Assembly (NCBI GenBank): GCA_000004985.1
Contig: GG738872.1
Length of the DNA: 64,000 nucleotides
From: Naegleria gruberi
Lineage: Eukaryota
Reading direction: 5' to 3' (one strand)
Under the pieces are notes generated by a model. That model made no database searches, was not told the DNA's origin, and saw only the letters and a program-made list of their open reading frames with translations. The position numbers were made by a program, and so were the translations under genes. Position 1 is the first letter of the stretch, and each line of letters starts with the position of its first letter. Shown piece by piece: positions 5,984-23,795 of the stretch.

Positions 5984-7414
5984 TTAGTTATTGTACTCAT
6001 CGTAGAATACTGATTCTCTATTGACAAGATTTAAGGTAGCCTTTGGCTCTGTCGAAATCTCTTCCAGGCAGTAATCTTCCAATACATCTTCACTGAAATA
6101 GGAAAGAATTAATTCTTCACACAATTCATCACTTTCAAATTTTTGATCCCCAGAAATGAACAAATGTTGAACTGAGGAGTTTCTAAGGAAAGATGTGTTC
6201 TTGTTTTCCTGTAAATAGTCAATCATGTGTAATGGAGTGGTACTGTCAAGTACTAAATGGGTCAAGTGATTAACAGTTCTGAGATGTTGAAAACATTCAC
6301 CACGTATGCTCGACAAATCACCAGTAATATCCAAACATTCCAAATATTCGAGTTCTTTGAATATTCTTGAAATAATATTGTCTGAGAGGTGGGACTTTAC
6401 TTCCGTATTTGCTTCCGTATTTGCTGTTTGTTGTATGTCGATAATAAGAGTTTTGAGATTTTTCATTTTGAGAATATGCTCAATAATTTCTATATCCAAA
6501 TTGGTAGATTCCCTTATTTCTAGGTATTCAATTTGTTTAGGATAGAATGATAGGAACCAATTTCCAAAAATCAAATTGCATCTCTCCATGACAACTTTTT
6601 TCAATTTCTTTGATTTAAAAAGTGTTGATTTGATTGTTTTAGGATTTGAAGTATTGGTTGTAGAAAAATCACAATATGTTAATCCAGACAAGTAAACTTC
6701 TTCCAATTGTTGAAAATGAAAATCTGTTGGGACAACATATCCTTTTGCTGGACCGCACAGCATATTTTCTGAACTATTGACAGTTAATCTCTTTAGAGTT
6801 TTGTATGTTTTCTTTTTGATTGACTCTAATTCAAGTTCTAATATTCCTGTTTGTTTGAGTGTTAATTCTTCAATGACAGGGCACATTGATAATACTTTAG
6901 AAATAACATCTGCAGAGGACGAATCAACATGATTTGCTCTCAAAATTTTCAAGTTTGGCAATTTTCTAGTTTGCAATAAATACATGTAATCAGTTACCAT
7001 AGAATCATTACCATCAAAATCAATTATCAAATTATACCAATAATCACCAGTATTTTGGATAATCTTTTTGATTCTTTCCACATCTTTCACATCATACTTT
7101 AAATTAATATCAATCACTCTTTCAACACGTCTCTTCTTTCTTCCCAAATCAACAAATGGCCTCTTGAAATGACAATATGCAACATTTCTCCAAAGCAAAT
7201 AATCATTCGGATCTTGATCTTGATTCCCCTGATGATCATCAAATGGCAAAATAATTGAATGAAAATATTTACAAACTCTTGCCAAAGGAATCAACTCGAA
7301 TAATGTAACAAACGACAATATTGATGTAATATTCTCGATCGGGAGATTCAACAAATGTACATCATGAGATGATCTTTCTGATGATGAATTTTCCCCTTCA
7401 TGTGATGCCGCCAT
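5984..7414 (-). CDS. F-box / leucine-rich-repeat protein, 476 aa, single exon.
   Basis: N-terminal F-box LLNLPIENITSILSFVTLFELIPLARVCKYFHSII, then L-rich repeats (LKTLIIDIQ, LEYLECLDITGDL, LTHLVLDS...). ATG confirmed at 7414..7412. A short in-frame duplication (ttccgtatttgc x2) gives ANTEANTE. Confidence 0.65.
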   Translation of the reverse strand: MAASHEGENSSSERSSHDVHLLNLPIENITSILSFVTLFELIPLARVCKYFHSIILPFDDHQGNQDQDPNDYLLWRNVAYCHFKRPFVDLGRKKRRVERVIDINLKYDVKDVERIKKIIQNTGDYWYNLIIDFDGNDSMVTDYMYLLQTRKLPNLKILRANHVDSSSADVISKVLSMCPVIEELTLKQTGILELELESIKKKTYKTLKRLTVNSSENMLCGPAKGYVVPTDFHFQQLEEVYLSGLTYCDFSTTNTSNPKTIKSTLFKSKKLKKVVMERCNLIFGNWFLSFYPKQIEYLEIRESTNLDIEIIEHILKMKNLKTLIIDIQQTANTEANTEVKSHLSDNIISRIFKELEYLECLDITGDLSSIRGECFQHLRTVNHLTHLVLDSTTPLHMIDYLQENKNTSFLRNSSVQHLFISGDQKFESDELCEELILSYFSEDVLEDYCLEEISTEPKATLNLVNRESVFYDEYNN

Positions 7415-7598
7415 TTTTTTCTGTTTAAAAATCTCAATTTCTGCTATTTAGTGGAAATCAAAAAAGTGGATTTCTATCAGTAATTGTAAAGTATTGAGAC
7501 AACCTTGAACTGAACATTTGTAAATATGTTGTGTATTGAAATCTTATTGTAAAGTTGAAAAAGTTGCTGTGGTGCACTAAAGATTCTCATAAAAAAAA

Positions 7599-9351
7599 AT
7601 GCAAAAGCTCATTTCGACTTTTTTTCGATCATCTCCCGAATCAAGTGCCAGCTTTGACACTTCAGAAAAACCAAAACCAAGACTTCATAACCAAGGTGAT
7701 TCCAAGGCGATTGTATTCCTAGGAACAGGTGGTTCAGGAAAGTGTACGTAAAAAGTTTACAACAATTATTTATTCAACAATTTTTAATTTGTTTTGTAAA
7801 TGTTAAATAGCTGCAATTTTTGTACAAATGTTTATAGAGAAGGATGATTTGGAAAAGAGAAGAACCATTCTACATGAAACAATTTTGGAATATTTTGACA
7901 TGGTTTCAATTAATACTTCTTTTGGGAATGCTCAAGCTTGCACGAAAATGGATGAATTTTTCGAGGAATATTCTAGATCGGGACCAAAGACGCTATCGGC
8001 AAGCAAGTTTTGGACTCAGGATTTTGCAGATAATTTGTTCGAGTTGTTTTACGATTCTGGATTTCAAGATTTGATTCACCAAAACCGTTCGAAACTCTAT
8101 TTACACGAGAATATTGCCTATTTCATGAGGAAGAAGAATTTTGAGAGGATTAAACACTTGTCCAAACTCAACATTGAAGATTTATTGCGAATAATGATTA
8201 AAACCTCTGGCATCTCATCATTTTCTCCAATTAAAGGAATAACCCTGTGTGATACTGGTGGACAAAGAACTGAAAGAAAAAAATGGAATAAGATTATAAG
8301 TAATCATGGCAGCAATATTGTAGAATGTCTGGTTGTTTCATTGGCAGAGTTTGATGAGGTTTGCTATGAGGACGATGTCACTAACAGGTATGAGGAAAGC
8401 TTGACTTGTTTTAGGGAGGAATTTGTGAATACAAAAGACTTGACCATTCTCTTTACAAAATATGAAGTGTTGAAAAGGAAGGTTTCTGATGGTGTTCGAT
8501 TTTCGGATTATGTTTCAGAGTTTAGTGGAAATGATTCGAATGTAGAGGAAGTTAGAGATTTTATTATTGGAAAGTATGTGGAATTGGATACGGAGAAGAA
8601 GATTAGAAAGTTTATTGTGGTTAATTCTGCATTTGATCATTTGGAATTGCAACAGGTTTTTAATGAAATTACCGAAACTAATTCATTCGATTCATATTTT
8701 GATGAATATTTGAAGAAACTTGATTTGGAAAAGCAAACTGGTGGTGATGTTGGAGAAGGAATACATGAAAATATTGAGAAGTGGACAGCCAGACCATTAT
8801 TGGAAGATGAAATTCTACAAATTTCCAACTTTTTGGAACTTGATGACTTGCTTAATATGAACCAAGTTTGTAAAATGTGGAATCATGTGACTTATAGAGC
8901 ATCTCTGATATTGAGAAGACCAAATCTCGATTTGTTTATCAATTCAGGTTATGAATTTGTTAAGAGCTTGACTCTTCAATCGAGATTTGTACAGAAAAGA
9001 CACATTGAGGCTCTTACTCAACCAAAATTTGCACAATTGGAATATTTAGATTTGCGAAATAATTATCTATTGAGACAAGAAGATTTTGATAAGTTATTTG
9101 GAAAAACTGATTTTAAACATCTAAAAACGCTCTTGTTGGATTATGTTGCATTACAGGATTTGAAATTTCTTCAAAATTCTGCGTATTTGAGACTGCATGT
9201 TCTTTCTTTGAATGGAGTGAAAGGAATTAGCACAGAACAGGTTATTCAGCTCATCAAGTCTCCAAGCTGTCAAGAACTGAAGGAGGTCAACACTAAAAAT
9301 TGCCCAAACACTAATACAGAGATTCTCAAAAAAGAGTTGAAAGTTCCGTGA
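7599..9351 (+). CDS. Fusion protein of a degenerate heterotrimeric G-alpha-like domain with F-box and LRR domains; join(7599..7743,7811..9351), about 562 aa.
   Basis: Exon 1 (MQKLISTFF...AIVFLGTGGSGK) supplies a G-alpha P-loop. A 67-nt intron (gtacgt...ttaaatag, 7744..7810) joins in phase to SAIFVQMFIEKDD... (G-alpha GESGKSTxxKQM). Switch II is DTGGQRTERKKW (compare DVGGQRSERKKW). NKxD is degenerate (ILFTKYEV). The Arg finger is lost (LRIMIKTSGI where RTRVKTTGI is expected). TCAT is degenerate (NSAF). C-terminal F-box EILQISNFLELDDLLNMNQVCKMWNHV, then LRRs. Confidence 0.6.
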
Positions 9352-9446
9352 CAAGATTTACACCATGACATACAATTACCATAAATTTTAAAGGCACCTT
9401 ATTTACAAAATAAAATTAAATTAAATTTTAGCTTTTTTAAAACTGT

Positions 9447-9519
9447 TGCTGACGGACGGGATCGAACCGGCGACCAATGGCTTATTAGACCAACGCTCTA
9501 CCGACTGAGCTACGCCAGC
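9447..9519 (-). tRNA. tRNA-Ile with anticodon AAU.
   Basis: Reverse complement reads GCTGGCGTAGCTCAGTCGGTAGAGCGTTGGTCTAATAAGCCATTGGTCGCCGGTTCGATCCCGTCCGTCAGCA. Cloverleaf with a 7/7 acceptor stem, D-arm GCTC/GAGC, anticodon loop CTAATAA and T-loop TTCGATC. One C-U mismatch in the T stem and a U-U at 27:43, hence not full confidence. Confidence 0.7.
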
Positions 9520-10086
9520 TTCACATTGAATATTATGCTTAAATGCTCCGGCTTAAATACCACAATTTTGACAGCTCACACAAGTAAAATAGATTTTAAG
9601 ATTTAGTAAAACTTAAGTACAAGCTATAGCTTTGAAAATACATTTCAAAGGTCTGTATCTTTAGCGCTAAAGATCTTTCCCTTGTCCCTTCTTGCTCAGA
9701 CTTGTAGGAATCTAATTAAGGTGGGCTGTTAGTTGGTTGATTGGATTGTGAGTTTGATTTTGTTGTGATTGTTGAGACATTTTTGTTTGGGCAATTGATG
9801 TTGATAACATGTTCCACTACAACAGTTACACAACCAAAAGTAATTAAATATTCACCCAATCAAATAATTCCCTATTTTACAAATCTCTTCTGTTTCAATT
9901 TCCAATTGTTGCTTGGACACAACAATACAAATTTAATCACAAATTGTAAACTTGACACACGAACTGTATTCTTTTGCGTAAAAGGAACTTCCATCTCATT
10001 GAATAGTCATCGTCCTTTCATGTAAATTAGGCAGTGATCTACTATTCAAATTGCTAAAAAAAATAAAAAACAACATAACCATCAAG

Positions 10087-11991
10087 ATGGCGAAACTGTT
10101 GCAACAGCACAATCATTTCATTAGCTCATACGTGCTGATGGTCGCGATTTTATTTATTGTCGTTGTCTTGATGATGAGTGGCCAAGACATGAATCAGGTC
10201 GAGGCAAAAATACAACTTCAAACAACCTGTTGTTGTCCTGCACAATTTAATTCTACCATTGTATTGAGTGGTGGTGGTGAAAAAGATGTGCATGTTGTAA
10301 ATCCATCACACGATTTGATATTTAGCTATTCTACTTATGAAGCTCTTTCATTGCCAACTTATGAATGGAAATCCACTGATATTGATTTGAGTGGTTTGGC
10401 TTGTAATAGAAGTTTCCTTATAATTCCCAAGACTAAACTTATGCTATTTGAAAAACAATTAACTGTTCAATTGATCATTAGAGAAGGTTGCTCAAAGATC
10501 TCTAATCCTTCAATTTCCTTCACTTTGAATACACCTCCAAGTGTTGGAACCTTGTCAATTACTCCAAGCAGTGGTGTTGCTTTGGAAACTGTTTTCACCT
10601 TGACATGTAACGGTTCTTCAGTTTCTAATAATCCTCTTACCTACAGATTCTTTTACTTGGACGAATCCAATTCAGTATGGAAGCCACTAAACGAAAGAAA
10701 TCAAGATTCAACTCTCAGTTCCACTCTCCCTCTTGGATCCAATTCAAGCAGCACACAAGTTTTGAATATCAAGGTTATTGTTTATGATTCTGTACTTGTT
10801 TCCTCTGAAAAGCAAATGACTGTCATTGTCTACAAACCTTCCTCAATCAGCAATACTACACTGTCTGACATGTTACAAAAGGCCAGCTCCAAATCAGTTT
10901 CGTCCTCCTATATTTCATCCACTTTGGATGCAATTACATTTTTTATTGCATCATCCACCAATGTCCCTAGCAATATGAAACAAATTATGAGTGCAATCAA
11001 TGCAGTTGTCGTTTCCTATGTTGATACTCTTCAAAATATTGGTCAATTCACATCTGATAATGGTATTTCCACTGTTTCTGCCATCTCTTCAATCAGCTCA
11101 TGTGTGGAATATGTTCAAGATGCAGAAAGTACATCTTCTATCATTAAGAAATTGAGAAATTTGACAGAGGAAGCAGCAACTAGCAGTTCTTTCACCTTGG
11201 ATGATGATTATTTGTATCTCATACAAAAGACAGCAAACAAATTCCTTCTCCATGTAAAATCATCCAATGATTTAAAAGAAATTGAAAATATTTACCCATT
11301 AGTTGGTAAATCTTTCATGAAAAAGTCTGTTCCAGATATGCCAGCAATTACCTTTTCTAATACCATTCAAATATGTTATTGGAGAAAGGTATTGGTTTCA
11401 TCCTTGACAAGCATTGTTGGAGAATCCATTGATAATAACGGAAATAAGATTTCAATACAATCTGGATTAGCAACACACCCGTCAGTTTCACAATTGAACT
11501 ACATTACATTAGCTTTGAAAACTGAATCCCCTACCGACAGGTTAATCTTTGACTTTTCAATACTTGAATTTGATAATGTCTCATCAGATAAGAGCCTCAT
11601 ATCAGTATTCTTTGATACCACTTTTCCTTTCTACTATTGTTCCTATTGGGATAATGCATGGAATCAGACAGTGGCTGGAGGTGCTTGTAATATTAATTAC
11701 TCAGGAAAAAGTTCAATTGGCACCATCTCTGCATCAATTGAAAAGACTGGTCGATTTTCCATTATCCGTGATCCAGGAGAGGGAGGAGAGAGCTTTATCA
11801 GGAATAATTATGATTTGTTTGCCCTATTTGCATTGTTGATTATTCCAATTGTGTGCATAATTATTGTATTATTGGTGGCCATTTACTTGTTGAGAAAGAG
11901 AAAGATCAAAACCAACTTGGAAAATAATGATGTTGATATTGTGAATGTGCGTGAACCTAAACAAACACTTATCAGTAATCAACACTTTTAA
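10087..11991 (+). CDS. Ser/Thr-rich type I transmembrane glycoprotein (mucin-like): signal peptide, long extracellular region, one C-terminal TM helix and a short basic tail.
   Basis: The first ATG is at 10087 (track 'M' at 10051 is TTG): [32 protein letters not shown] is the signal. There are many N-x-S/T sites and S/T-rich stretches. C-terminal [28 protein letters not shown] followed by RKRKIKT. No convincing domain match. Confidence 0.5.
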
Positions 11992-16670: not shown

Positions 16671-18266
16671 ATGGCTACTAATCTTTACGATCCTGTAATA
16701 GGAGACGAATTAAATTATAAAGGTGTGATGCTTCCACCACCATTCAGCGAAGCTAAAGTAAATTCAGAGGATGGCTTGTTGGAACAAAATCCACAAATCG
16801 ACCCAAAGAAACTTCATCCATTGACTCCAGAAGTTATTTCTCGTCAAGCTACTATTAACATTGGTACTATTGGACACGTCGCCCACGGTAAATCCACAGT
16901 CGTCAGAGCTATTTCTGGTGTTAAGACTATTCGTTTCAAGAATGAAATGGTTCGTAACATTACCATCAAGCTTGGTTATGCCAATGCCAAGATTTTCTTG
17001 TGTAGAGATCCTAAATGTCCAAGACCAGAATGTTATACATCACAAGGTTCTAACCATTGCGATCATTTCCCATGTGAAGTTGATGATTTCAAGGGTGAAT
17101 ATGAATTGGTTAGACACGTTTCTTTTGTCGATTGTCCAGGTCACGATATTCTCATGGCTACCATGTTGAACGGTGCCGCTGTCATGGATGCCGCTCTTTT
17201 ATTAATTGCTGGTAATGAACCATGTCCTCAACCACAAACATCAGAACATTTAGCTGCTGTAGAAATTATGAAATTGAAACATATTATTATTTTACAAAAT
17301 AAGATTGACTTGGTAAAGGAATCTGATGCTTTGAATCAATTTGATGAAATCAAACGTTTCGTTAAGGGAACTGTTGCTGATAATTCACCAATTATTCCAA
17401 TTTCTGCCCAATTGAAATACAATATTGACGTCGTTTGTGAACACATTGTGAAACGTATCCCAATTCCAATCCGTGATTTTACAAGCTCACCAAGATTGAT
17501 TGTCATTCGTAGTTTTGACGTTAACAAGCCAGGTGAAGCTGTTGAAAATCTTAAGGGTGGTGTTGCTGGTGGTTCTATTCTCAGAGGTGTTTTGAGGATT
17601 GGAGATGAAATTGAAGTTCGTCCAGGTATTGTGACTAAGGAAAAGGACGGTACTATCAAATGTAAACCAATTACAAGCAAAATTGTCAGTTTGTTCGCTG
17701 AAGAAAATGCTTTGCAATATGCTGTACCAGGTGGTTTGATTGGTGTTGGTACAAAGATTGATCCAACTCTTACTCGTGCCGATCGTTTGGTAGGTCAAGT
17801 TCTTGGTGAAGTTGGTAAATTACCAGAAGTTTACACTGAATTGGAAATTTCATACTTTTTACTTAGAAGACTTTTGGGTGTCAAGACTGACAATGAAAAG
17901 AAAGGAAAGATTCAAAAATTGCAAAAGGGTGAAGTCCTCATGATCAACATAGGTTCAACATCATCAGGTGGTAAAATCGTTGCTGTTAAGGCTGACTTGA
18001 CAAAGATTGTCCTTACTCAACCAGTTTGTACAGAAGTCGGTGAAAAGTTGGCTCTTTCCAGAAGAGTTGATAACCACTGGAGATTGATTGGTTGGGGTAG
18101 TATTGTCAGATTGAGCTCTGAACAAACAAAGCACGGTTTAGGTTTGGATATCAGTGGATCTGGTCTCAGAGAAAGTGGCTTGAATACTGAAGATATTAAC
18201 ACTGAAGTCGTCGAAGAAGAGCAAGCAGAAGATGAACAAGCCGACGAACAAGCTGATGAAGAGTAA
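16671..18266 (+). CDS. EIF2S3: Translation initiation factor eIF2 gamma subunit, 531 aa, single exon, with an acidic C-terminal extension.
   Basis: [14 protein letters not shown] (G1), DCPGH (G3) and NKID (G4). The zinc-knuckle region is [25 protein letters not shown]. Collinear with eIF2-gamma/GCD11 over the full length. Tail [17 protein letters not shown]. Leader caacaagATG. Confidence 0.9.
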
Positions 18267-18419: not shown

Positions 18420-21400
18420 TTATTCATCATCTTCCATTGAATCAGAGTCTTCACCTTCTTCCTCTTCATCTTCGCCTTCATCATCTTCTGCTCCTTCTGT
18501 AATTTCATCACAAGACATGTCGCTCTTTGGAGCTGATACTGTTACACCCAATTCTGTGGCAAGATATTCCTTGAGTGAGGAGTAGGTCTTTAGATATCCA
18601 ATCTTTTCCAAATCATCTTTAATTGGATATTCATTTGAAATCTTTCCTGCATTATCACAAATGAACAAGGCACCTTCATTTTCAAGGAAGAGTGGCAACA
18701 AGTATTGCTTGATAACTCTCTTCACATCGCTCACTGTTACCTTTCCGATATCTTGGAGATTTTCGTAAAAGTTTCTTGGTCCATTAAACAAGGTGTTGGT
18801 TAAGAATCGAGAGTAGGCAGCTGAAATAATAGTCTCTGCATTATTCAATTTTTCAACAACTGTGGTTGCCTTGGCAGGTTCGAGTGCAGATTCATTAAGC
18901 TTCAAGACATTTTCACTTGGTTCTTCATCAGAGCAAACAGCTTCAATAATTGCCTTTGATTCAGCATAGGCCTTGGAAACATTTCCAACACGAGACAAAT
19001 ACAGGCCTACTGATCCCTTATCTACATTACTAATGATGGAGTAACCATAACACAATCCTTTACCTCTGAGTTTGACCCAGAATGGTCCTTCTTCGCCAGT
19101 CAAAAAGTTAATGGCAACACTTAGAGAATGTCTGTCATGATAATTCAAATAATCAGTAATACCCTTATGAACTTTCAAAAGGAATGCAGAATCAGTTGAT
19201 CCCATACCTAATAAAATACCTCTATTAACATGTTCGACATATTCAGTAGTTGATCTACATAATCCATTCATTGATTGGACTCGTGCAGTAGAATCGCAGA
19301 GAGNNNNNNNNNNNNNNNNNNNNNNNNNNNNNNNNNNNNNNNNNNNNNNNNNNNNNNNNNNNNNNNNNNNNNNNNNNNNNNNNNNNNNNNNNNNNNNNNN
19401 NNNNNNNNNNNNNNNNNNNNNNNNNNNNNNNNNNNNNNNNNNNNNNNNNNNNNNNNNNNNNNNNNNNNNNNNNNNNNNNNNNNNNNNNNNNNNNNNNNNN
19501 NNNNNNNNNNNNNNNNNNNNNNNNNNNNNNNNNNNNNNNNNNNNNNNNNNNNNNNNNNNNNNNNNNNNNNNNNNNNNNNNNNNNNNNNNNNNNNNNNNNN
19601 NNNNNNNNNNNNNNNNNNNNNNNNNNNNNNNNNNNNNNNNNNNNNNNNNNNNNNNNNNNNNNNNNNNNNNNNNNNNNNNNNNNNNNNNNNNNNNNNNNNN
19701 NNNNNNNNNNNNNNNNNNNNNNNNNNNNNNNNNNNNNNNNNNNNNNNNNNNNNNNNNNNNNNNNNNNNNNNNNNNNNNNNNNNNNNNNNNNNNNNNNNNN
19801 NNNNNNNNTTGTAAATTCTTACCTCCATCACCACTATCATTATCACCTCCACAAGTGTAAGAGTTAGAAACAGATTCTCTCATGAGACTCATAATGACAT
19901 TTTCCTTCTTGATATATTGACTTGGATCCTCACCAAGTTTCATATCACATGAAAAGTTGAGAGCCAAAAACAAAGGAATGTACATTTTAAGATCGAGTGG
20001 AACATTGCTCGAGTCCATTAAACAGAACATTTCCACAAATCTCGATGCAATAGAAGTAATTTGAAGGAAGAATGGAAGTGGTGAAATGTGATCCTTCAAC
20101 TTTTCAGCAAGCACCTTATCGTATGGTGTTTGAACAAATGAAGGATTATTATCATTTCTATAGGTGGCAATGTGAATCTCCTCAATGCTGTCCAAGGTTG
20201 GGATTGGGAATTTCTCCTTGAGGAATTTTTCATCGATTGGCTTGGTATTGGCCTCTTCAGCTTGTTTGAGACGAGTTTCTAATTCTTTCAATTTGGCTTC
20301 ACCGAGTCTTGTCTTTTGTTCCTCAATTCTCTTAGTATTTTCATCGGCCATATCCTTGGCTTTTTGAGCAGAAGGAGTAGCTCTCAAGACAACATTCTCA
20401 GTGGAGAGAATGTACTTTTCAATCAAGTCCTTCCAGAATTGTTCGTCCTTCTTGGCCAACTCTTCGGAAATGAGATCAACATCGAGAACTTGTCTACAAT
20501 CTTGATTATCAGTGCTGTACAAAAAGTCCTCAATCAAGACACTAGAGAAGGTTTCATGAGGAGAGGTTTCATATGAACGCAAGCTATCCAATCTGTCTCT
20601 ATTAATGACCAACTTGAAATATTCGAGGTCAATCTTTACATTTCTCATAAAATCATAAAACTTTTCCACAATGGTATCATATCTATCTGGTTCAACATTA
20701 ATAAAACAAATCTTGTGGGTATTTTCAAAGGTTCTATCAACAGAAGCATAGACATCTCCACACCAAACATCTCCACTCTCATTCTCTATAAATTCCTTTC
20801 TAATTGGAGCAATATCACCACTAGTGAGTGCACTCCAAACAATATCCAATGCATAGGATGTTGCAAAATCCTTCCAAGGTGTTGCTCTCCAACCAATGGT
20901 AACATAAAATCCAGAATCTTCCTCATCCGATGGATAAACAATGTCTTTAGAGATTGATGAAGTCAACTTTGGAAGTGATTGCTTCCAAATATTCAAATCC
21001 AATTGTGGATTAATAGTTGGTTCTCGGTTCAATACTTTTTGTTCAATAGAATCATTAACAGAGTCAATCAATTCTTCAACAGAAGTGTTACCCACAACAA
21101 TAACATTGAAATTTTGTGGACAATAGTATTCCTTGTGGAATTGCCTAACTTTTTCAATGGTCAATTCTCTCAAATTTGAAACTCTTCCACCAAAATTATA
21201 TTGATATCCTTCACTCTTATCAAACATTAATTCATTAAATACCATATAAATTAATTCATCAGGTGCATTCTCTCTTCCGAGCATTTCATTATATACAACA
21301 CCACTATTCTGACCAGATCCATCAATGTGATGAATTTCAGTGATGAAAGCATTATCACTCAATGTAGGATATAAAATATGATCCAAATAAACTGGTAATA

Positions 21401-21710
21401 ATCTGTAAAATCCTTCCTTTCCTGCTGTTGTCAATTCATAGGTTGTATTAGTATTTTGAGTATATGCATTTGTACCTTGAGCAAAGCATCTATTTGCAAC
21501 CTTATCCAAGATACCCTTGTATGGATATTCTTCACTTCCCATGAAAATTAAATGTTCCAAAACATGAGGAATACCATCATGATCGGCAGGTCTTGTTCTC
21601 ACTGTTAAATAGGCCTTCATAATTGGTGATTGAATTTTGGCCAATGTAATCAACATGCCCGTCTTGATGGATCTATACTTGTAAATGGTACCATAATTTA
21701 AATAATCGAA
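18420..21710 (-). CDS. M16-family zinc metalloprotease (inverted HxxEH, PreP/Cym1-like, over 1000 aa). The N-run 19305..19808 interrupts it and the 5' end lies in the N-run starting at 21711.
   Basis: FDYLNYGTIYKYRSIKTGMLITLAKIQSPIMKAYLTVRTRPADHDGIPHVLEHLIFMGSEEYPYKG. The frame is open from 21710 down to the stop at 18420 with no in-frame stop. Acidic C-terminal tail (EDDEGEDEEEEGEDSDSMEDDE). The in-frame X's are only the N-run. Confidence 0.8.
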   Translation of the reverse strand, partial: FDYLNYGTIYKYRSIKTGMLITLAKIQSPIMKAYLTVRTRPADHDGIPHVLEHLIFMGSEEYPYKGILDKVANRCFAQGTNAYTQNTNTTYELTTAGKEGFYRLLPVYLDHILYPTLSDNAFITEIHHIDGSGQNSGVVYNEMLGRENAPDELIYMVFNELMFDKSEGYQYNFGGRVSNLRELTIEKVRQFHKEYYCPQNFNVIVVGNTSVEELIDSVNDSIEQKVLNREPTINPQLDLNIWKQSLPKLTSSISKDIVYPSDEEDSGFYVTIGWRATPWKDFATSYALDIVWSALTSGDIAPIRKEFIENESGDVWCGDVYASVDRTFENTHKICFINVEPDRYDTIVEKFYDFMRNVKIDLEYFKLVINRDRLDSLRSYETSPHETFSSVLIEDFLYSTDNQDCRQVLDVDLISEELAKKDEQFWKDLIEKYILSTENVVLRATPSAQKAKDMADENTKRIEEQKTRLGEAKLKELETRLKQAEEANTKPIDEKFLKEKFPIPTLDSIEEIHIATYRNDNNPSFVQTPYDKVLAEKLKDHISPLPFFLQITSIASRFVEMFCLMDSSNVPLDLKMYIPLFLALNFSCDMKLGEDPSQYIKKENVIMSLMRESVSNSYTCGGDNDSGDGGKNLQXXXXXXXXXXXXXXXXXXXXXXXXXXXXXXXXXXXXXXXXXXXXXXXXXXXXXXXXXXXXXXXXXXXXXXXXXXXXXXXXXXXXXXXXXXXXXXXXXXXXXXXXXXXXXXXXXXXXXXXXXXXXXXXXXXXXXXXXXXXXXXXXXXXXXXXXXXXXXXXXXXXXXXXXXLCDSTARVQSMNGLCRSTTEYVEHVNRGILLGMGSTDSAFLLKVHKGITDYLNYHDRHSLSVAINFLTGEEGPFWVKLRGKGLCYGYSIISNVDKGSVGLYLSRVGNVSKAYAESKAIIEAVCSDEEPSENVLKLNESALEPAKATTVVEKLNNAETIISAAYSRFLTNTLFNGPRNFYENLQDIGKVTVSDVKRVIKQYLLPLFLENEGALFICDNAGKISNEYPIKDDLEKIGYLKTYSSLKEYLATELGVTVSAPKSDMSCDEITEGAEDDEGEDEEEEGEDSDSMEDDE
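19305..19808. other. Assembly gap or masked segment, 504 N, inside the M16 protease coding region.
   Basis: Run of n characters. Flanking sequence is in frame on both sides only because of the arbitrary N count. Confidence 0.95.
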
Positions 21711-22215: not shown

Positions 22216-23795
22216 TGGTCATTCCAAAAAACTAAACCAATCTATGATAATCAAGTTATTTACAATCAATGCAGCATTGATAAAGCCAATCTCCCACAGG
22301 AATCCCCAATTGAAACATTCAATGTTGCATTAAAAGTTCCAGATATTGCTCTTCTTAAGAAAAACAGTAAAGTTGTCCAAAAAGGAAAATGGACCTTAAT
22401 TTGGAATCAAGGAATGGAAATTCGTTTTTCAAATTTCAGATATTTTGCCTTTTTTAATTATACTATGAATGCAGAGGGAGTTTCTACTTCAAATTGTAGT
22501 AGAATTCTTATGGGTACTTATCACGATAATTCTGTGAACGCTGCCAAGTGGGGATGCTTTATTGGTGATAGGATTAAGGTGCCAAAAAGTGCTAAAAGAT
22601 TTTTGACAGATGTCAGTTTGAGTTCTGGAAATGTAGAGGGTAGATCTGAGAGAGATGATAGAAAATATGAAGATTATCAATATGTAGAAGAATTAAATAA
22701 GGTACAAAAGAGTTGGAAGGCATCAATCAATAATCAATTTAAAGGAATGACAATTGGTCAATTGAAAAGTATTTATCTCAAAAAACAAAAAAGAGTTTCT
22801 ATTGCATCCAGAGATTTTATCAACAATGAATTGAAAAAGAAAGCTACCACCCGTCATCCCTCATCTGGAGGTCAATTCATATTCAATGGTGAAATTGACA
22901 GATATGAATGGATTAGTGATGAGGAAATTTCAAAAATTCCTGAAGAATTTTCATGGGAAGATGTGAATGGTCAAGATTATTTGACCCCTGTGAGAAACCA
23001 GTACAGTTGTGGATCATGCTTTGCTTTCGGTGAGTTTCAGATTCTGTAAAACTAATATTCGAATATTATTTAATTAAGGCACCAGTGAAATGCTTGGAAT
23101 GAGAGTTAGAATTAAGAGCGGTCTTTCCAAAACCGACATATTCTCTCCACAAGCCATTGTCGATTGTAGTCCTTATTCTCAAGGGTAGGTTCAATCTTTC
23201 GAATTTCATTATTCTAAACATTTCTAATTTTGTTTTATCAAAAAACTATAGCTGCAGTGGAGGATGTGTCTATCTTGCCTCCAAATATGTACAAGATTAT
23301 GGACTCGTTCTCGATCAATGTCTCCCTTACAATGCCTCAATGAGAGTTGCCCAAACATGCACCATCAATCAACAAACTGCATGTACAAAATTGAGAGTTT
23401 CGAATTATTACAATGTTGGTGGTTATTATGGAGCTTCAAATGAATTGAACATTATGATGGATGTCTTGAAAAGAGGTCCAATTGTTGCTGGATTTATGGT
23501 TTACAATGACTTTTTCTATTACAAGAGTGGTATTTATACTCACATTCCAACAGAAAAATACGAAACTTCATCAACAGATAAGAAATTACCCAAATTTTAC
23601 TACATTAATCACACATTAATCATTTATGGATGGGGAATCGACAAGTCAACTGGTCAAAAATATTGGAATATTCAAAATTCTTGGGGATCTAAAGATTGGG
23701 GAATGAAAGGTCGTGGTCTTGTTGCTAGAGGTGATAACACTGGATTTATTGAAAGTGATGCTGAAGCTGCAATTCCAATCATTTCAAATCTTTGA
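22216..23795 (+). CDS. CTSC: Cathepsin C (dipeptidyl peptidase I) with exclusion domain, 5'-partial because it starts inside the N-run; join(22216..23029,23079..23184,23252..23795).
   Basis: Exclusion-domain match WTLIWNQGMEIRFSNFRYFAFFNYTMNAEGVSTSNCSRILMGTYHDNSVNAAKWGCFIGDRIKVP, compare human [58 protein letters not shown]. Papain active-site QYSCGSCFAFG. Introns: 49 nt (gtgagt..taattaag) and 67 nt (gtaggt..ctatag). C-terminal IYGWGIDKSTGQKYWNIQNSWGSKDWGMKGRGLVARGDNTGFIESDAEAAIP, compare cathepsin C RRGTDECAIESIAVAATP. The frame is open back to the gap edge at 22216. Confidence 0.8.

Follow-up and report, generated by a model that had tools for sequence, protein, structure and literature searches.

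Here we report a two-exon gene of Naegleria gruberi that is predicted to join a heterotrimeric-type G-alpha domain to the F-box and leucine-rich repeat (LRR) module of an FBXL protein in one polypeptide. The gene occupies positions 7599..9351 on the plus strand of a 64,000-nucleotide stretch of contig GG738872.1 (assembly GCA_000004985.1), which is referred to below as the window and has a GC content of 33%; all features of the gene are given in window positions on the plus strand. On the evidence of comparative sequence analysis and structure modelling, the locus is one two-exon gene for a predicted soluble protein of 561 aa consisting of a G-alpha fold, a flexible linker, and an FBXL-type F-box followed by about six LRRs. 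Exon 1 (7599..7743, 145 nt), delimited by an open reading frame (ORF) and a splice model, begins at Met1, ends one base into the Ser49 codon and codes for a Ser/Pro-rich N-terminus without Gly2, strand beta1, and the P-loop through GTGGSGK. The 67-nt intron (7744..7810, GTACGT...AAATAG) is placed in phase 1 within the Walker-A Ser codon, and its removal leaves the exons in frame. Exon 2 (7811..9351) encodes the remainder of the G-alpha domain, the linker, the F-box and the LRRs in an uninterrupted frame that closes with the stop codon at 9349..9351. The exon-1 ORF reaches a stop 8 nt inside the intron, and the exon-2 frame begins just 4 nt ahead of the intron AG; in the ORF list the latter appears as a 507-aa ORF, a single open frame that covers both the G-alpha and the F-box/LRR modules and was also recovered by tblastn. 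The minus strand over the gene contains short ORFs only, and tblastn detected no second copy of the gene elsewhere in the window.

The exon-2 product is 100% identical to NAEGRDRAFT_49587 (P0001; XP_002676336.1; UniProt D2VHI5), which is publicly annotated as a "predicted protein" of 467 aa whose first residues, MDEFFEEY, start at Met95 of the spliced protein, so that the P-loop is absent from the model. An exact look-up of the spliced 561-aa protein, used as a proxy for a transcript-derived product, returned no entry. The intron at 7744..7810 had been proposed in the initial annotation, and comparison supports it, with four independent observations in favour of an in-frame join of the exons. 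Joining them restores the Walker-A motif GTGGSGK/S (slashes mark splice junctions), whereby the Pfam G-alpha match reaches back to profile position 18/333. A metagenome contig (L003) carrying the orthologue of NAEGRDRAFT_66027, a paralogue of the present gene, is interrupted by an intron in exactly this codon and phase (GGA AAA A/GTAAGT..AAAAAG/GT TCA; phase 1 of the Walker-A Ser codon), and the NCBI model of that paralogue (P0007; ...GCGGSGKSSIMRAI...) employs this intron. Hexamers resembling a 5' splice site occur only twice in the whole gene, one of them at 7744. Finally, exon 1, the intron and exon 2 are all present in an independent ENA metagenome assembly of a near-identical strain (L002), which differs from the window at only two positions over exon 1 and the intron (exon 1, 144/145 identical). 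In this strain the last base of exon 1 is A rather than T, which converts Ser49 to Thr (GKS to GKT), the sole other residue that Walker A tolerates at this position, and the donor site reads GTATGT rather than GTACGT, with the GT kept.

Over positions 7477..9446, the exons and intron of the strain variant are 98-99% identical to the window, while identity of the flanks drops to 83-85%, the divergence setting in some 55 bp ahead of the ATG and directly past the stop. With 1 change in 67 nt, the intron equals the coding sequence in conservation, which would be unexpected if it were neutral. At the 3' end (9340..9400), an indel near the stop codon adds 15 residues to the strain-variant protein P0157 (…KVQFRAKIYTMTYNYHKF), and the extreme C-terminus is thus under no constraint.

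The N-terminal region had been described in the initial annotation as a heterotrimeric G-alpha fold with a P-loop, a helical insert and switch II, and profile search, structure prediction and comparison all agree with this assignment. The spliced exon join gives GTGGSGKSAIFVQM, and the Pfam G-alpha profile (PF00503) matched the protein at aa 34-338 over profile positions 18-332 of 333 (E 5e-49, 167.7 bits versus a cut-off of 48.8), an end-to-end alignment well beyond what chance would give. The best solved relative in a phmmer search of the PDB was Galpha7 of Naegleria fowleri (Nf Galpha7; 6ne6, E 1.6e-32). Structure modelling and the exhaustive homology search described below used exon 2 alone (512 aa), so that strand beta1, the P-loop and the N-terminus lie outside the models. 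For exon 2, the AlphaFold2 model, which drew on a 72-sequence alignment, had a mean predicted local distance difference test score (pLDDT) of 84.3 with the helical-domain insert visible, and Foldseek searches of the PDB with this model returned G-alpha structures only (6ne6, 7.8e-14; about 310 aligned columns; template modelling score about 0.7 on the targets). The all-helical domain is inserted in the Ras-like domain at 7849..8157 (approximately aa 62-164), with its helices at exon-2 residues 13-115 of the model. As judged from the profile and the model, the G-alpha fold is complete and comprises both the Ras-like and the helical domain.

The status of the nucleotide-binding motifs was assessed in the 72-sequence G-alpha alignment and by pairwise alignment to human GNAI1. 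The intron-split P-loop (G1), GTGGSGKS (7722..7812, aa 42-49), conforms to Walker A, GxxxxGK[ST], in dependence on the inferred intron, with the usual Glu replaced by Gly (GAGESGKS in GNAI1). This Glu forms a pair with the Arg finger that has been linked to the control of nucleotide exchange (Bosch 2022, PMC9283941). In switch I, RIMIKTSGI (8188..8214, aa 175-183), the Arg finger has become Met177, a position held by Arg in 56/72 aligned G-alpha proteins, while the Mg-binding Thr180 is kept (Thr in 67/72). Switch II with the G3 motif, DTGGQRTERKKW (8251..8286, aa 196-207), has an intact D196-T-G-G-Q200 including the catalytic Gln200 (Gln in 64/72); ERKKW and the Arg/Glu residues of switch III and alpha3, nearly invariant in the alignment, are likewise retained, and the C-terminal half of alpha2 is divergent, with WNKIIS versus WIHCFE and a 3-residue insert. 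The G4 motif NKxD is replaced by TKYE (T264-K-Y-E267; 8455..8466), at positions where Asn and Asp occur in 56/72 and 66/72 sequences, respectively; Thr at the first position is frequent among otherwise intact G-alpha proteins (15/72). The G5 region reads NSAFD instead of TCATD (8623..8637, aa 320-324), only the Ala of TCA[TS] being retained (A322; Ala in 61/72) in a column that is variable among protist G-alpha proteins. The reported loss of the switch-I arginine finger and of NKxD is thus upheld by the alignment, and the remaining sequence features of the initial annotation were all recovered where it had placed them. Its assignment of the acidic stretch SLAEFDEVCYEDDVTNRYEES to the alpha-G region was wrong, since this segment aligns to beta4, switch III and alpha3 of GNAI1.

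Both ends of the G-alpha domain depart from those of a signalling subunit. The N-terminus, MQKLIS, contains neither Gly2 nor Cys3, and residues 10-36 are rich in Ser and Pro, which makes a lipid anchor and a helix alphaN unlikely. In the model, helix alpha5 continues into the linker and F-box, so that the C-terminal tail is not free. The linker (8680..8793, approximately aa 339-376) shows poor conservation, varies in length and is disordered in part, and the family alignment is gapped in this region; the exon-2 model places one extra helix past alpha5 at residues 291-308, followed by a segment of pLDDT below 50 at residues 308-326, before the next module is reached at pLDDT 86-95.

The module that follows the linker starts with a putative F-box, PLLEDEILQISNFLELDDLLNMNQVCKMWNHV (8794..8919, approximately aa 377-418), which forms three helices in the model and keeps the F-box hydrophobic pattern and a VCKxW motif. 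Its Pfam scores in this protein are sub-threshold, at 20.2-21.8 bits versus a cut-off of 24.3 for F-box-like (E 1.6e-4 to 5e-4) and 10-14 bits versus 20.5 for F-box, and across the family described below the Pfam F-box was matched in 4/4 members (best E 6e-5). About six LRRs of the FBXL/Skp2-like kind occupy the remainder of the protein (8920..9348, approximately aa 419-561); LRR_4 was matched in 4/4 family members (best E 7.6e-6), and LxxLxL motifs occur at aa 458, 486 and 510. Modelled alone from four family sequences, aa 376-561 gave a pLDDT of 85.8 and a predicted template modelling score of 0.84; in this model three helices lead into six strand/helix repeats, the six beta strands being spaced by approximately 24-28 residues. 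The top PDB matches of this model in Foldseek were Skp2 (1fs2, 4e-5), FBXL2-SKP1 (6o60, 9e-5), KDM2A-SKP1 and FBXL17-SKP1, with further matches to KDM2B, TIR1, FBXL3 and FBXL5, and most of the top matches had been solved with Skp1. A family profile searched against the PDB weakly matched Skp2, the F-box of FBXL3, and LRRs of the ribonuclease-inhibitor type. Of the earlier description of a canonical F-box and leucine-rich repeats, the two modules therefore stand on the model, the Foldseek matches and the family-wide Pfam matches, while the word "canonical" does not, given the sub-threshold F-box.

To trace the family, 1.84 billion representative sequences were searched exhaustively with HMMER, which yielded 2271 G-alpha relatives, among which only three others align beyond the G-alpha domain into the F-box and LRRs. 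One is N. gruberi NAEGRDRAFT_73957 (P0006), an N-terminally truncated model; the second is a 498-aa ORF from ENA/Logan contigs (P0005), the same gene as N. gruberi NAEGRDRAFT_66027; and the third, found as a fragment in JGI and ENA metagenomes, represents an environmental relative (P0008). All three have a collinear architecture and are 36-39% identical to the query over both modules, with 49% identity between P0008 and P0005 over the same extent, and the family shares conserved blocks in the F-box/LRR part (e.g., RPNLDLF, LQSxF and LEYLDLSNNY). The same fusion is therefore found in three N. gruberi paralogues and an environmental relative. Against the query, G-alpha domains within the family reach scores of 1e-44 to 1e-69 and the next G-alpha only 1e-25, which suggests that the fusion arose once and was then duplicated to give at least three paralogues in N. 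gruberi; its reading frame has stayed open. The Arg finger is lost throughout the family (the other members have Met, Met and Tyr), and the G5 Ala is replaced by Cys in P0006. The G4 motif varies from TKYE in the query to TKFE in P0006, NKMD in P0005 and SKHQ in P0008; since TK[YF]E is common to two paralogues that are only 38% identical, it appears to have been retained rather than randomly decayed.

Annotation of the family has been affected by gene-model errors. The NCBI/JGI model of NAEGRDRAFT_66027 cuts a 116-nt linker segment with the borders GTGAGT..ATAG (positions 1590..1705 of L003), and its product P0007 is without the F-box and LRRs because this predicted intron shifts the frame. 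The read-through frame over the segment is open and conserved; the 116-nt intron could be a prediction artefact, or it could give rise to an alternative isoform that uncouples the G-alpha domain from the F-box. Three N. gruberi models need correction, NAEGRDRAFT_49587 and NAEGRDRAFT_73957 being N-terminally truncated and NAEGRDRAFT_66027 mis-spliced at the 3' end, and it is these errors, together with the sub-threshold F-box, that render the architecture invisible in domain databases. Searches of protein collections with the full protein and with the family profile recovered members from N. gruberi and metagenomes only, and two JGI metagenome profile scans (A4 and A2 profiles) gave no matches. 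A word-indexed search with the C-terminal module by itself matched nothing, the source protein included, and reflects a limit of the tool. The published list of 13 N. fowleri G-alpha subunits does not mention an F-box (Bosch 2022, PMC9283941).

A different combination of G-alpha and F-box sequences was observed in a JGI metagenome (3300073937, about 30% GC), where protein P0004 (L001, 3001..3960) consists of a G-alpha fragment from switch I onwards with an F-box-like segment (E 9.2e-5) located between NKQD (G4) and TNAT (G5). This protein seems to be without a P-loop or helical domain, the gap to the upstream gene being only 174 bp, and a search of IMG/VR with it gave no match.

In the window, the fusion gene is preceded on the opposite strand by the divergently transcribed NAEGRDRAFT_49586 (5984..7414, minus strand), which encodes a protein with an F-box (Pfam 1.2e-5) and LRRs. 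The ATGs of the two genes are 184 bp apart, and these two F-box/LRR genes may have a common bidirectional promoter. Origin of the C-terminal module by duplication from NAEGRDRAFT_49586 was considered and rejected, as BLASTP similarity is marginal and confined to the LRRs (E 0.033), the two not being closely related. Downstream, a tRNA-Ile(AAT) gene lies on the opposite strand (9447..9519, minus strand), 96 bp past the stop codon of the fusion gene, and the next gene (10051..11991, plus strand) codes for a polycystin-1/receptor-for-egg-jelly-like protein that contains a REJ domain (PF02010, E 5.9e-24) and carries a hydrophobic segment at its C-terminus. More distant housekeeping neighbours encode eIF2-gamma (16671..18266, plus strand), an M16 insulinase-type peptidase (18420..21656, minus strand), and a cathepsin-C-like papain protease that appears to extend over two ORFs, probably split by an intron (22414..23795, plus strand).

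Based on the motif analysis and the modelled structures, we favour as reasonably probable that the protein is a substrate receptor of an SCF (Skp1-Cul1-F-box) ubiquitin ligase carrying a GTPase-crippled G-alpha domain that serves as a switch or for interaction. The C-terminal FBXL-like module would dock on Skp1-Cul1, and thereby the protein would act as the substrate receptor. The G-alpha domain would still bind a nucleotide triphosphate with Mg and move switch II, because the P-loop, the Mg-binding Thr, DxGGQ and the ionic residues of switches II and III are intact. Since the Arg finger and the P-loop Glu are lost and NKxD has become TKYE, exchange would be expected to be fast, intrinsic hydrolysis very slow and the recognition of guanine relaxed or weakened; the expectation for hydrolysis is based on the behaviour of the Gαi1 R178 and Gαs R201 mutants. 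Naegleria has G-alpha subunits that are self-activating and are regulated by seven-transmembrane RGS (7TM-RGS) proteins, RGS denoting a regulator of G-protein signalling, and Nf Galpha7 is itself an active, self-activating GTPase (Bosch 2022, PMC9283941). Since Nf Galpha7 is the nearest characterised relative, a GTP-bound default state would be expected here as well. In 1996, Berman et al. reportedly found that RGS proteins still act on Arg-finger mutants, so control by the many 7TM-RGS proteins of Naegleria is conceivable. Participation in a receptor-coupled heterotrimer is unlikely, because the protein has no lipidated N-terminus, no helix alphaN and no free C-terminal tail. The G-alpha domain would instead be a mostly "on" switch or a docking surface, which could either supply the ligase with G-alpha partners (RGS or 7TM-RGS proteins, effectors and perhaps G-beta-gamma) or gate the F-box and LRRs. 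The initial annotation had suggested an interaction or regulatory domain recruited to ubiquitin ligase targeting, or a nucleotide-state sensor with a non-standard cycle; such roles would be plausible and agree with the switch residues that are kept.

Several points weigh against this assignment. The F-box of this protein falls under the Pfam cut-off, and the JGI model of the paralogue NAEGRDRAFT_66027 predicts an intron that removes the F-box and LRRs. The 7743/7811 splice and the full-length product are deduced from comparison, and Skp1 binding, nucleotide binding and the engagement of substrates are predictions from sequence and models. TKYE and NSAF together could abolish guanine binding altogether. 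The ratio of nonsynonymous to synonymous substitution rates (dN/dS) relative to the near-identical strain, the sole close comparison, is 0.45 for the whole protein, 0.29 in the G-alpha part and, from 8 substitutions, 1.09 in the C-terminal part, and is uninformative since the 21 substitutions in total are too few; a stronger argument for constraint comes from the long open frames and the motifs conserved among paralogues that are 36-49% identical. No orthologue was found among the N. fowleri, N. lovaniensis and Willaertia proteins in the collections searched, a result that is provisional given the imperfect tools; the fusion family may thus be young and lineage-restricted.

The main rival to an SCF receptor with a nucleotide-binding domain is a nucleotide-free pseudo-GTPase scaffold, in which the G-alpha fold would form a rigid interaction or autoinhibitory domain on the SCF adaptor, as does the GTPase domain of RhoBTB; we regard this as possible, if rather unlikely. 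It would account for the alteration of both guanine-contact motifs (NKxD to TKYE and TCAT to NSAF) along with the disappearance of the Arg finger and the P-loop Glu, and for the further changes seen in the family, where P0008 has SKHQ and P0006 has Cys for the G5 Ala; degenerate Naegleria G-alpha proteins suspected to have lost nucleotide-dependent activity have also been reported in a review (PMC8584482). Such a scaffold is harder to reconcile with the retention of Walker A, the Mg-binding Thr, DxGGQ and the switch II/III Arg/Glu residues, with a strain variant that changes Walker A only within its tolerance (Ser to Thr), with NKMD in the paralogue P0005, and with Thr at the first G4 position in 15/72 otherwise intact G-alpha proteins. 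The domain may also be a working switch with fast exchange, crippled hydrolysis and reset by 7TM-RGS proteins only, whose GTP/GDP state would directly gate substrate capture or Skp1 engagement; this version we consider unlikely. If true, G-protein signalling and SCF-mediated degradation would be connected within one polypeptide. The conserved TK[YF]E might also reflect the sensing of a nucleotide other than GTP.

We consider it quite improbable that the protein cycles and signals as a conventional G-alpha to which an LRR tail has been added at the C-terminus, the F-box-like helices being an LRR cap that does not engage Skp1. The full-length G-alpha profile match and the sub-threshold F-box are compatible with such a protein, as is the activity of its closest solved relative, the self-activating Nf Galpha7, but the Arg finger is absent family-wide, the lipidation site is missing and a Ser/Pro-rich segment takes the place of helix alphaN, the receptor-contacting C-terminus is buried in the linker, and the best matches of the three-helix-plus-LRR module are FBXL proteins bound to Skp1. 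An artefact or decaying gene, that is, two neighbouring genes or a read-through pseudogene to which exon 1 does not belong, would fit the public model that omits exon 1 and starts at Met95 and the C-terminal dN/dS of about 1 (on very few changes), but is extremely improbable given that four sequences 36-49% identical all keep this collinear ORF open, that an independent metagenome assembly repeats exon 1, intron and exon 2, that the intron position is conserved in a paralogue, and that the window holds no other copy.

To our knowledge, G-alpha domains are almost never found in multidomain proteins, and links between heterotrimeric G proteins and ubiquitin ligases normally operate in trans. Covalent attachment of a G-alpha to an SCF adaptor would be a natural experiment in which a nucleotide switch is coupled to targeted degradation. 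Its significance is limited by the narrow distribution, comprising the N. gruberi clade and one environmental relative, and by a function that is deduced from sequence. In the literature searched, which did not cover Anantharaman et al. 2011 (Gene 475:63), no report of a G-alpha/F-box combination was found. N. gruberi encodes 44 G-alpha subunits, some with degenerate catalytic motifs (PMC8584482), so that degeneracy of a Naegleria G-alpha is by itself no novelty. What is new is the G-alpha/F-box fusion, the fact that it recurs in paralogues, and the mis-annotation by which it has been hidden, the individual parts and the theme of a GTPase combined with an adaptor being already known.

Comparison with known systems sets these parts in context. 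With G-alpha subunits, and Nf Galpha7 (6NE6) in particular, to which it is 27-37% identical, the protein shares the whole Ras-like domain with its inserted helical domain, the P-loop, the switch-I Thr, DxGGQ and the switch II/III residues; it differs in having Met for the Arg finger, Gly for the P-loop Glu, TKYE for NKxD and NSAF for TCAT, in the lack of an N-terminal lipidation site and helix alphaN, and in a C-terminus that runs on for about 220 aa. With the FBXL proteins Skp2, FBXL2, FBXL3, FBXL5, FBXL17, KDM2A/B and TIR1, which are its best structural matches, it shares a three-helix F-box placed directly before a curved LRR solenoid. In classical FBXL proteins the F-box is near the N-terminus, whereas here it is preceded by a 340-aa G-alpha domain; the protein further departs from this class in having only about six repeats and a Pfam score under the cut-off, and its Skp1 binding is predicted. 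Plant extra-large G proteins (XLGs) and other atypical G-alpha proteins also combine a degenerate G-alpha-like domain with an extra region and have a non-canonical or doubtful nucleotide cycle (PMC8584482). In XLGs, however, the extension is N-terminal and is not an F-box/LRR module, other positions are degenerate, and the lineages are unrelated. Precedents for the combination are found among small GTPases: RhoBTB combines an atypical Rho domain with a BTB/Cul3 adaptor, and TRIM23/ARD1 a RING with an ARF domain. Lineage-specific ARF-F-box and ARF-BTB proteins are known in protists, and recruitment of GTPases into ubiquitin circuits is recurrent (Vargova et al. 2021, PMC8358228). As in these proteins, a GTPase-fold domain, often catalytically atypical, shares its polypeptide with a cullin-RING adaptor or E3 domain. 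RhoBTB, TRIM23 and the ARF-F-box proteins belong to the small Ras-superfamily GTPases, whereas the Naegleria protein contains a heterotrimeric-type G-alpha with its helical domain, and the fusion described here would thus carry the theme of a GTPase joined to a cullin adaptor into the heterotrimeric class.

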